Source of the DNA: a plasmid
Assembly (NCBI RefSeq): GCF_053078305.1
Contig: NZ_CP166877.1
Reading direction: 5' to 3' (one strand)
DNA length: 7,047 nt
The notes under the pieces are model-generated. The model did not search any database, was not told where the DNA came from, and worked only from the letters and a program-made list of their open reading frames with translations. Made by a program: the position numbers and the translations under genes. Of this stretch, positions 3,105-6,475 are shown piece by piece. Each line of letters starts with the position of its first letter. Within the stretch, counting starts at the first letter, position 1.

Positions 3105-3209
3105 CAGTTTTATATCTCATCCTGATTTGCTCCGGTGTTCTGTTTCGACGTTCTCAATGCCTGCCTCCCCATAGTGTGATCCTTATTGCAAAAATGAAAA
3201 TCCATGCTC

Positions 3210-3238
3210 TTGACACGGACAATGCTGAGTAGTAGGTT
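3210..3238 (+). promoter_or_regulatory. Colicin operon sigma70 promoter (-35 TTGACA 3210-3215; putative -10 TAGGTT 3233-3238)
   Basis: Consensus -35 TTGACA, a 17-bp spacer and an imperfect -10, immediately upstream of the tandem LexA boxes and about 80 bp upstream of the colicin ATG. This is the usual colicin promoter architecture. Confidence 0.7.
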
Positions 3239-3242
3239 TTCA

Positions 3243-3273
3243 CTGTACATAAAACCAGTGGTTATATGTACAG
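3243..3273 (+). promoter_or_regulatory. Tandem LexA (SOS) operators overlapping by 1 bp
   Basis: CTGTACATAAAACCAG (3243-3258) and GTGGTTATATGTACAG (3258-3273), each close to CTGT-N8-ACAG. The double overlapping SOS box is the hallmark of colicin promoters, and the arrangement is near-identical to the colicin E1 operator as I recall it. Confidence 0.85.
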
Positions 3274-3317
3274 TATGCTGTTTTTAATTTATTGTTTTAA
3301 TTATCAAAGAGGAATTT

Positions 3318-4964
3318 ATGGCTAAAGAACTAAGTGGATATGGCCCAACTGCTGGTGAGTCTATGGGGGGAACAGGGGCGAATCTGAATCAGCAAGGTGG
3401 AAATAATAATAGTAATAGTGGGGTTCACTGGGGTGGTGGCTCTGGGCATGGTAATAATGGTGGTCAGGGAAATTCAAATTCATCTGGTTCTACATCAACT
3501 GTGATGAAAACCGGTGAGTCATATCTGACTCCGTGGGGTGATGTTGTCATTAATAATGATGGCCTTCCGGTGATGAATGGTATTGTTATGACAGAAGAGA
3601 ATTCAACTCTGGTTGATAATCCATTTGGAGGGGTCTCCAGAGTTCTTAATTCTTTAATTAGTGATATGCCATCACTTTTTGCAGAAAGCTCAGGAAATAA
3701 CAACAATAACACTGCTTCAGTTAATACTGCACCAACGAATGCTCAGGTCAGTGATATGGATAAGAGTTCGAAGGTGGTGGGTAATGTAATTAATGAAAAA
3801 CAAAAGCAGAAGAATAAAATTGCTACACAGATTAGTGAAAAACAGAAGAAAATAGAGGAGATGAAAAAAGTATTCAAGCATCATTCTTATCATGGTATCA
3901 CTGATCTTGAGAGGGATGTTGATGAGTTGCAAAAAAAATCAAATCAGCTTGATGCAGATATTAGCAAACTTAATTCTTATAAAAATACATTGCAAAGTAA
4001 AATTGGTGATGTGAATAAACAGAAGGAAGCTGAAGAAAAGGCTCGTGAAAATGCAGAGGTCGCTGAACATGAAACTCTTAATGAAGAGAAACAGGCGGTG
4101 GTGGAAGCAGAGAAGCGTTTAGATGAGGCGAAAGCTGAACTGGCGAAGGCTGAAAGTGATGTACAGAGTAAGCAAGCTACTGTTTCCAGAGTTGCAGGAG
4201 AGCTTGAAAACGCTCAGAAGAGTGTTGACGTGAAGGTCACCGGATTTCCGGGATGGCGTGACGTTCAGAAAAAACTACAGCGTCAGCTTGAAGCTAAGCA
4301 GGCTGAGTACTCCGCAGTTGAAAATGAACTTAAGAATGCTGTTAGTTTCAGGGATGGCAAGGCTGCTGAGGTAAAAGAGGCAGAGCAGAAATTAAAAGAA
4401 GCTCAGGATGCTCTTGAAAAGAGCCAGATAAAAGATGCTGTTGATACTATGGTTGGGTTTTATCAATATATAACCGAACAATATGGAGAAAAATACGCAA
4501 AAATTGCTCAGGATTTAGCGGAAAAGTCTAAAGGAAAGAAAATTCAAGGTGTTGATGAAGCTCTGGCAGCATTTGAAAAGTATAAAAATGTACTGGATAA
4601 GAAATTCAGTAAAGTTGATCGGGATGCTATTTTTAATGCGTTAGAGTCTGTTACTTATGATGAGTGGGCAAAGCATCTAGAAAAGATCTCTAAGGCTCTT
4701 AAGGTTACCGGATATTTGTCTTTCGGGAATGATGTATGGGATGGTACCCGGAAGGGATTAGAAACAGGAGACTGGAGGCCTTTATTTGTCACTCTGGAGA
4801 AGAGTGCGGTAGATTTCGGAGTGGCAAAAATTGTGGCATTAATGTTCAGTTTTATTGCTGGTGCTCCTCTTGGTTTCTGGGGGATTGCTATTATCACTGG
4901 TATTGTTTCTTCTTACATAGGGGATGATGAGCTGAACAAACTTAATGAGTTGTTAGGGATTTAA
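3318..4964 (+). CDS. cka: Pore-forming colicin of the E1/K/5/10 family; length and organisation best fit colicin K
   Basis: 548-aa ORF with AAGAGG SD 5 nt upstream. It has the three expected parts: a Gly/Asn/Ser-rich low-complexity N-terminal translocation domain, a long Lys/Glu-rich coiled-coil central region, and a C-terminal channel domain closely resembling the colicin E1 pore domain as I recall it ([59 protein letters not shown], then the hydrophobic hairpin [33 protein letters not shown]). Colicin K is 548 aa; the specific K assignment is from memory. Confidence 0.92.
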
Positions 4965-5251
4965 TATCTCTTTAGAGTGTAATATATGAAACTTGGCAAT
5001 CCTACTGGGATTGCCATTGCCAGGTAAAGTAAATAAAAAAGGTTGTATGAGTACCAAGGCTCTTTTTTTATGTTTGTCGTCTTTTGTATAAAAGAAAATA
5101 TCGTTAGTTTTGAATATGGGTATAGTAATACATGTATTGATGCAAAAAATATAAAAGCTAGAGATATATCATTGTTATAGTTAAGTGTTAAATATAATAA
5201 CCATGGCAGAAGTGATTCAGGTAAATTATGTAGGTAGTATTTTAGATACAT
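4961..5251 (-). CDS. cki: Colicin immunity protein (pore-former type, integral membrane)
   Basis: 96-aa ORF convergent with the colicin gene. It is very hydrophobic and AT-rich with about three predicted transmembrane segments ([12 protein letters not shown]..., [16 protein letters not shown]..., [23 protein letters not shown]). Position and opposite orientation between colicin and lysis genes are typical of pore-forming colicin immunity genes. Its stop overlaps the colicin stop in TTAA (4961-4964). Confidence 0.85.
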
Positions 5252-5275
5252 AATTTTTTCTTTTGTTGGAGGTGT

Positions 5276-5407
5276 ATGAAAATAGTGCTTTTTCTAATTA
5301 CAATATTATCCTTGTCAGGATGTCAAGCAAACTATATTCGTGATGTACAAGGAGGAACCGTTGCGCCATCTTCGTCTTCTGAACTGACGGGGATCGCGGT
5401 TCAGTAG
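5276..5407 (+). CDS. ckl: Colicin lysis (release) lipoprotein
   Basis: Not in the ORF track because it is short. Manual translation gives [43 protein letters not shown] (43 aa): signal peptide, lipobox LSG-C, and the conserved mature motif [11 protein letters not shown] typical of colicin lysis proteins. GGAGG lies just upstream. Confidence 0.85.
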
Positions 5408-5415
5408 AAAAGATC

Positions 5416-5441
5416 AAAGGATCTCTTGAGATCCTTTTTTT
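5416..5441 (+). terminator. Rho-independent terminator-like hairpin plus T-run at the end of the colicin operon
   Basis: AAAGGATCTC-TT-GAGATCCTTT inverted repeat followed by TTTTTTT, 9 nt after the lysis gene stop. The same motif occurs at the equivalent place in pMB1/pBR322. It overlaps the RNAII promoter -35. Confidence 0.5.
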
Positions 5442-5454
5442 CTGCGCGTAATCT
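5426..5454 (+). promoter_or_regulatory. RNAII (replication primer) promoter: -35 TTGAGA (5426-5431), -10 TAATCT (5449-5454)
   Basis: Matches the ColE1/pMB1 RNAII promoter context (TTGAGATCCTTTTTTTCTGCGCGTAATCTGCTGC), with a 17-bp spacer. Confidence 0.7.
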
Positions 5455-5467
5455 GCTGCCTGTAAAC

Positions 5468-5573
5468 GAAAAAACCCGCCTTGTGGCGGGTTCTTCCGTC
5501 CGATCAGAAGTCTTCGACCTCTTCTAATCGGCGGTGGTAACTGGCTATCGCAGAGCACAGGTACCTAAATTGT
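5468..5573 (-). ncRNA. RNAI antisense copy-number control RNA
   Basis: The reverse complement reads ACAAUUUAGGUACCUGUGCUCUGCGAUAGCCAGUUACC..CCGAUUAGAAGAGGUCGAAGACUUCUGAUCGG..AACCCGCCACAAGGCGGGUUUUUU. This gives three stem-loops and a terminal hairpin plus U-run, homologous in layout to pMB1 RNAI but with different stem and loop sequences. Confidence 0.8.
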
Positions 5574-6420: not shown

Positions 6421-6475
6421 TGCTCCCGGCATCCGGTCACAGGCAAGCTGTGACCGTCTCCGGGAGCTGCATGTG

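Follow-up and report, generated by a model that had tools for sequence, protein, structure and literature searches.

Where does the message for a colicin end when the colicin gene runs into a convergent immunity gene, so that no intergenic room is left for a terminator, and the lysis gene lies beyond on the same strand? The window, i.e. the whole stretch of 7,047 nucleotides analysed here, is a complete 7047-bp ColK-type plasmid that raises this question at a short inverted repeat placed just behind the colicin stop codon. Positions 4930-5280 are a 100% match to NZ_CP046541.1, from which the gene names cka, Cki-family immunity and lysis protein were taken. The following features of the window are relevant:

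3243-3274, + strand: tandem overlapping LexA (SOS) box-like sequence CTGTACATAAAACCAGTGGTTATATGTACAG, upstream of cka, identified by sequence
3318-4964, + strand: cka, colicin K activity gene, 548 aa; open reading frame, annotated cka in matching plasmids
4961-5251, - strand: Cki-family immunity gene, 96 aa; open reading frame, convergent with cka, 4-nt overlap
4994-5016, + strand (assigned by position): hairpin with a 9-bp stem and a 5-nt loop; from sequence, energy and relatives
5276-5407, + strand: ckl, lysis (colicin release) lipoprotein gene; open reading frame, annotation in matching plasmids, homology check
5416-5437, + strand: terminator-like hairpin with a T-run (AAAGGATCTCTTGAGATCCTTT TTTTCTG), 9 nt past the lysis-gene stop; from a terminator scan
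5466-5572, - strand: RNAI match (Rfam RF00106); from Rfam 15

Following the logic of group A colicin operons, ckl is reached from the cka promoter only if transcription passes the hairpin at 4994-5016 and continues antisense through cki. The sequence at 3243-3274 was taken to represent SOS boxes on the basis of the established CTGT-N8-ACAG consensus; such LexA boxes are expected in an SOS-regulated colicin promoter, and they are presumably the source of the transcripts reaching the hairpin. The hairpin at 5416-5437 is a T2-type operon end, in contrast to the U-less hairpin at 4994-5016. It is directly followed by the RNAI match, i.e. the colicin operon adjoins the ColE1-type replication control region. 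The immunity gene of the window is a rare variant, carried in PLSDB by NZ_CP046541.1 and CP056942.1 only. It shares 77% identity with the canonical cki and 85% with the immunity gene of Col10, and the region of cka, cki and ckl (3200-5500) is overall ~93% identical to ColK plasmids. The immunity region of the window therefore appears to be mosaic or diversified.

The original prediction described a perfect 8-bp inverted repeat inside the immunity gene, about 30 nt past the colicin stop, and the repeat is present as described. It consists of GGCAATCC (4995-5002), TACTG (5003-5007) and GGATTGCC (5008-5015), the distance from the cka stop (4964) to its stem is 30 nt, and it lies on cki codons 79-86. 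Perfect pairing is one base longer on each side than first noted and comprises 9 bp (TGGCAATCC-TACTG-GGATTGCCA, 4994-5016), with predicted energies of -14.3 kcal/mol in the colicin-sense and -13.4 kcal/mol in the immunity-sense RNA. In the colicin-sense RNA a tenth pair, U.G, is possible and closes a 3-nt loop; the greater stability in this sense may result from the G+U-rich composition of the strand. The hairpin is palindromic and consequently folds in both transcripts. Its codons, M79-P86 (MAIPVGLP), lie ten codons before the cki stop.

With 9 bp of perfect pairing, 5 G:C pairs and a loop of 5, the stem has the properties of an intrinsic terminator. The T-run is missing, as had been stated earlier: the + strand tail (TTGCCAGGTA / UUGCCAGG) contains 2 U in the first 8, and the hairpin was not called on the + strand by the terminator scan of the window. 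It does not have the form of a bidirectional terminator either, as it is located inside cki with GAAACT and TTGCCAGG as flanks and lacks an A-tract/U-tract pair. No family of Rfam 15 matches the hairpin, the RNAI match being the sole one in the window. The frequency of such repeats by chance was estimated from 500 dinucleotide-preserving shuffles, searched for perfect inverted repeats with a loop of 3-8 nt. Repeats of at least 8 bp occur 0.64 times per window (41% of the shuffles contain at least one) and repeats of at least 9 bp 0.14 times (11% of the shuffles), which agrees with the earlier assessment that the repeat, taken alone, is statistically unremarkable in 7 kb. The significance of the hairpin arises only through comparison with relatives. 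Further perfect 9-bp repeats are found at 1952-1975 (TAAGGGATT-ATGGTA-AATCCCTTA) and 6434-6456 (CGGTCACAG-GCAAG-CTGTGACCG), and the window contains four such repeats in total, versus 0.14 expected.

As close relatives, 13 ColK, Col10 and related sequences with immunity genes 67-85% identical in nucleotides were aligned. Both arms of the stem are invariant in these 13 ColK/Col5/Col10-type sequences, with the exception of the outermost pair in L007. The loop is variable (TACTG, GATAG, GATCG), also at the third position of P82, a synonymous site at which CCA, CCT and CCG occur. L007 (NZ_CP021102.1, a Col10 plasmid) has one inserted nucleotide, and G replaces T at the outermost stem pair (positions 458-496); its immunity gene is frameshifted, unannotated and pseudogene-like, and no other sequence was seen in which the stem is altered. 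In the group, all five degenerate codons of the stem are invariant, as are 24 of the 44 residue-invariant degenerate codons (hypergeometric p ~0.04). Given this 24/44 background, codon conservation within the group is suggestive, not decisive, and was not accepted as proof.

ColE1, with a pore domain 64% identical and an immunity protein 38% identical to those of the window, possesses a homologous hairpin on the AIPxGL codons of its homologous immunity gene. This hairpin (GTCCTAGCAATCC-AAATG-GGATTGCTAGGAC) is a perfect 13-bp stem of -22 kcal/mol, begins 23 nt after the cea stop and occupies the homologous codons in the same frame (LAIPFGLL). It shares with the window the core GCAATCC/GGATTGC, the 4-nt overlap of colicin and immunity gene and the lysis gene downstream. 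It differs in its stem length (13 bp versus 9 bp, i.e. four extra pairs), in pair 2, which is A:U instead of the G:C of ColK and thus compensatory, and in a T5 run on the immunity side. The formal covariation count is weak, with one compensatory pair (G:C to A:U) besides seven invariant pairs. The codon comparison of the K and E1 groups was discarded, because 17 of the 19 invariant residues also share their codon; on its own it does not tell whether the constraint acts on the RNA or on the protein. For ColE1, a terminator T1 located between cea and kil was reportedly described in the 1980s. In the full-text literature searched, which excludes the key older papers, no account of a terminator of ColK or ColE1 turned up.

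A profile search of 1.8 billion representatives recovered immunity homologues at 18-44% identity, nearly all of them with an AIPxGL-like motif, and the DNA of nine was fetched. In L022, L024 and L026 the motif codons form a hairpin whose stem measures 9-11 bp, plus lineage-specific extensions. The colicin and immunity genes overlap by 4 nt in L024 and L026 and are 6 nt apart in L022. Outer stem pairs differ by lineage, with up to 13 bp in ColE1. The motif codons read:

ColK (window): ATG GCA ATC CCA GTA GGA TTG CCA, hairpin
L009: ATG GCA ATC CCT ATC GGA TTG CCA, hairpin
ColE1: CTA GCA ATC CCA TTT GGA TTG CTA, hairpin
L022: CTA GCA ATC CCT GTT GGA CTG CTA, hairpin
L024: CTA GCA ATC CCT CTA GGA TTG CTA, hairpin
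L026: CTG GCA ATC CCA GTG GGA TTG CCA, hairpin
L030: TTT GCC ATC CCA TTA GGG TTG TTA, no hairpin
L027: TTA GCC ATC CCG CTG GGA TTG CCA, no hairpin

The four stem codons GCA, ATC, GGA and TTG are identical in 23 of 24 cases over the six hairpin lineages, versus 11 of 19 in hairpin-less homologues, and between these lineages the codons of identical residues agree at a background rate of 0.23-0.63. Hairpin-less homologues (L027, L030, L031, L032) encode the same residues with other codons. Synonymous recodings were generated with each gene's own codon usage, and the fraction folding at least as stably as the native sequence, in the colicin sense, is:

window: 0.02 (0.007-0.02 across tests)
L009: 0.017
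ColE1: 0.0002
L022: 0.0014
L024: 0.0002
L026: 0.0004
hairpin-less controls L027, L030 and L032: 0.13, 0.09 and 0.54

Native stems of the hairpin lineages are more stable than 98-99.98% of the synonymous recodings, which fold to -6 to -9 kcal/mol on average. As the native stems are extreme among recodings, the hairpin is under selection beyond the needs of the protein: the structure exists, is conserved, and is selected in excess of what the immunity protein requires. Conservation at synonymous positions of the immunity gene, on which the original prediction had made its proposal depend, is borne out by the stem codons, the variable loop site and the recoding tests alike. The window hairpin combines all features of this group, i.e. 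a position on the AIPxGL codons of a Cki/ImmE1-family gene overlapping or abutting the colicin gene, the shared core and the excess stability.

In L022 and L023 a colicin-like gene and an ImmE1/Cki-family immunity gene are located on scaffolds of 0.7-1.1 Mb, which are apparently chromosomal; no lysis homologue is present within 1200 nt, and the embedded hairpin is still there. Colicin K and E1 immunity modules were furthermore encountered on the short contigs L019, L020 and L021, labelled Terrisporobacter mayombei, Bacillota MAG and Lachnospiraceae MAG, and are almost certainly E. coli plasmid sequences that got there by contamination or mis-binning. A genome-contig search for further relatives yielded only ColE1/ColK copies, on apparently contaminant contigs.

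Other relatives carry their hairpin outside the immunity codons. L016 (ColIa-like), L030, L031 and L032 possess the AIPxGL motif without an embedded hairpin; a hairpin set apart from the motif lies 1-12 nt beyond the stop codon of the colicin gene. Such a separate hairpin, at the same distance, is also present in L015, L017 and L018 (ColY), where the immunity gene is unrelated or unannotated. These junction hairpins sit in the gap between the genes or across the immunity stop codon, and their sequences are unrelated to each other's and to the window's. Clear colicin-sense U-tracts follow four of them (L015, L030, L031, L032), none with a downstream lysis homologue. In the eight sequences with a lysis gene, all hairpins are without a canonical colicin-sense U-tract, an association that is suggestive only, because the eight represent about three independent lineages. 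Each colicin gene examined has exactly one stable hairpin within ~45 nt past its stop, and the embedded hairpin is found exactly where a separate junction hairpin is absent: its distribution is complementary to that of the junction terminators. Since the relatives have junction hairpins at this position, several of them with U-tracts, it is probably here that the colicin transcripts of the family end.

Between the cka stop and the ckl start, no other hairpin is conserved among the relatives compared. An AT-rich perfect 10-bp inverted repeat at 5223-5256 (AAATTATGTA / TACATAATTT) spans the cki start codon and codons 7-10, is followed on the + strand by TTTTTTCTTTTG (a T-run) and lies just upstream of the ckl RBS. 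It is common to the window and the ColK variant L002, weakened in other variants and not conserved in Col10-type or ColE1 sequences, and was rejected as an alternative T1. A second structure at ~5033-5071 (A-run/T-run), with weak A:U pairing only, encodes the conserved KKEPWY loop and was set aside. Rho-dependent termination in the spacer is unlikely, as its + strand is poor in C (9% C, 20% G). A reading of TGGCA...TTGCCA as a sigma-54 or sigma-70 promoter was dismissed by inspection due to its misfitting spacing.

We therefore favour, with confidence that is about evenly balanced, the explanation that the hairpin is a selected nucleic-acid structure and the coding-embedded equivalent of the colicin/immunity junction terminator hairpins of related operons. 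Most likely it would mark or protect the end of the colicin message and limit read-through into the lysis gene. Upon SOS induction, RNA polymerase would transcribe cka, the ribosome would leave at the stop at 4964, and the hairpin, 30 nt further on, would fold in untranslated RNA. We propose that only a fraction of the polymerases would be halted or paused, because no U-tract follows the hairpin, and that the stem would block 3'-to-5' exonucleases after cleavage in the AU-rich spacer. The outcome would be an abundant, stable cka-only message and less full-length RNA extending, via antisense cki, to the lysis gene 260 nt on. As the 4-nt overlap of cka and cki leaves no intergenic room, the structure would have been written into cki codons 79-86 (GCA, ATC, GGA, TTG).

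The colicin direction is suggested by several observations. The hairpin lies downstream of the cka stop and ten codons ahead of the cki stop, and is therefore a post-ORF element only for cka. The U-tracts of the relatives' junction hairpins face the colicin direction, and the change of TTG to CTG in L022 retains a G.U pair in the colicin-sense RNA, with A.C in the immunity-sense RNA. Counter-evidence comes from the U-tract, which is missing in the colicin direction (0-3 U in the first 8 in the embedded lineages), so that termination in this sense should be inefficient under the canonical model, and from L022, which keeps its U-less hairpin with no lysis homologue within 1200 nt. The original proposal of a T1-like partial terminator consequently holds in part: position, synonymous-site conservation and complementary distribution speak for it, whereas the lack of a U-tract, the distance of 260 nt from the lysis-gene RBS and the occurrence in L022 without a lysis gene speak against it. 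We infer the active strand as well as a terminating or stabilising activity; the hairpin may terminate, pause, or only protect a processed 3' end.

The same stem may be read in the opposite direction, as an intragenic intrinsic terminator for transcripts of the constitutive cki promoter that fires only if these are untranslated, and that curbs both the antisense transcription entering cka and the collisions with SOS-driven polymerases; we give this a minor chance. The terminator scan calls the window hairpin on the minus strand (tail AGTTTCATAT), the ColE1 hairpin has the look of a textbook terminator in the immunity direction (14 pairs, then TTTTATATCA), all five embedded lineages have U-rich tails in the immunity sense (4-6 U among the first 8), the immunity strand gives recoding p-values equal to or lower than those of the colicin strand for the window, ColE1 and L026, and for ColA transcriptional interference between the convergent promoters of colicin and immunity gene is documented, as cited in a passage of PMC5001618. 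However, the stem ends ten codons before the cki stop, and termination would cut the message there (five to six codons before the stop in ColE1), producing a non-stop mRNA for the essential immunity protein. Codons for hydrophobic residues (S-F-I, L-F-I), in a gene of 28% GC, make up the U-rich tail, which is weaker in L009/L011 (AGCCUCAU), the CTG variant of L022 loses a pair on the immunity strand only, and the junction U-tracts of relatives face the colicin, not the immunity, direction. Termination in the immunity direction is unlikely as the main function and possible for untranslated transcripts. A two-way conditional switch, which in the colicin sense throttles lysis read-through and in the immunity sense (stem plus U-rich codons) terminates untranslated cki transcripts only, is improbable; if true, ribosome occupancy would govern how far immunity transcription proceeds into cka, and a single 23-nt element on both strands would set the balance of colicin, immunity and lysis. 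It is also unlikely that the palindrome lacks a function of its own and represents a by-product of the AIPxGL motif, shared ancestry and low synonymous divergence at conserved residues. The motif is indeed kept across the whole immunity family, recodings still fold at -6 to -9 kcal/mol on average, K and E1 share the codon of 17 of 19 invariant residues, and only one compensatory event is present. Yet the motif is encoded without a hairpin in L030 (GCC ATC CCA TTA GGG TTG), L027, L031 and L032, native stems are extreme among recodings in six lineages and not in the controls, each lineage has different outer pairs (to 13 bp in ColE1), and the embedded hairpin occurs exactly where no junction hairpin does.

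Very improbable is a control site for RNA-RNA or RNA-protein contacts, formed either by kissing loops of the read-through cka-ckl RNA and the cki mRNA or by CsrA binding via GGA. The stem is necessarily shared by both transcripts, their loops being complementary, and UACUGGGAUUG in the colicin sense (5003-5013, loop plus 3' arm) resembles RUACARGGAUGU, the SELEX consensus of CsrA. Control of the ColE7 lysis gene by CsrA acts through T1 (PMC2896534), but in the window the GGA is paired within the stem, not exposed, and the ckl Shine-Dalgarno is 260 nt away, far beyond the ColE7 spacing; moreover, the loop is not conserved (TACTG, GATAG, GATCG, AAATG, TAGAG, AACAG, CACTG) and no Rfam family is matched. 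A palindrome acting at the DNA level, as a site for a dimeric protein or as a cruciform or single-strand structure in plasmid maintenance, is barely plausible despite the perfect dyad symmetry: the tolerated G.U-type changes and lineage-specific extensions fit RNA pairing, not a fixed protein recognition sequence, the element follows the end of the colicin gene in plasmids and chromosomes with unrelated backbones, and hairpins at the equivalent position in relatives have unrelated sequences.

If the hairpin sets the ratio of colicin-only to colicin-plus-lysis RNA, as a colicin-sense end element would, then it controls the amount of toxin made before the cell's self-killing, and this ratio is central to models of colicin-mediated competition. 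The locus is also a clear case of dual coding, with five synonymous immunity-gene sites fixed for a structure that would serve the opposite strand's transcript; in relatives with intergenic room, a conventional terminator would have taken over the same job. A recoded or codon-optimised cki or imm in an expression construct would lack the element, and lysis-gene expression could change. The current understanding of colicin operons is not overturned, and dual coding and complementary distribution would not surprise a colicin specialist.

Hairpins of this kind are already known in colicin operons. The junction terminators of the ColIa-like, ColY and ColA-type operons resemble the window in having one stable hairpin ~45 nt or less past the stop at a convergent junction, but they are located in the gap or across the immunity stop, are unrelated in sequence and often possess a colicin-sense U-tract, whereas the window hairpin is wholly inside the immunity ORF and has none. 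Intercistronic stabilising hairpins, such as the REP elements in malEFG and those of the puf operon, are U-less, protect the upstream cistron from 3' exonucleases and result in unequal expression within an operon. They resemble the window hairpin as U-less stem-loops after an upstream cistron, but are intergenic and not encoded in an antisense gene.

For ColE2/E7, a throttling of the lysis gene of the T1 type is documented (PMC4353708, PMC2896534). In the nuclease colicins ColE2, ColE7 and ColE9 the T1 stem-loop is credited with holding lysis below colicin expression (PMC4353708, PMC2896534, PMC7372221), with an abundant short transcript and a rare long, lysis-including one in ColE2/E7 (PMC4353708). 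T1 of E2/E7 is intergenic and directly upstream of the lysis gene, includes the Shine-Dalgarno, binds CsrA and belongs to an operon with a co-oriented immunity gene. In contrast, the window hairpin lies within a gene coding on the opposite strand, 260 nt ahead of the GGAGG of the ckl RBS, and does not overlap the lysis Shine-Dalgarno or CsrA sites as in the ColE7 type; sequence homology between the two was not seen. As in the nuclease colicins, the SOS-driven operon of the window has a stem-loop that separates the lysis gene from the genes upstream; at 4994-5016, it falls between 4964, where cka stops, and 5276, where ckl starts.
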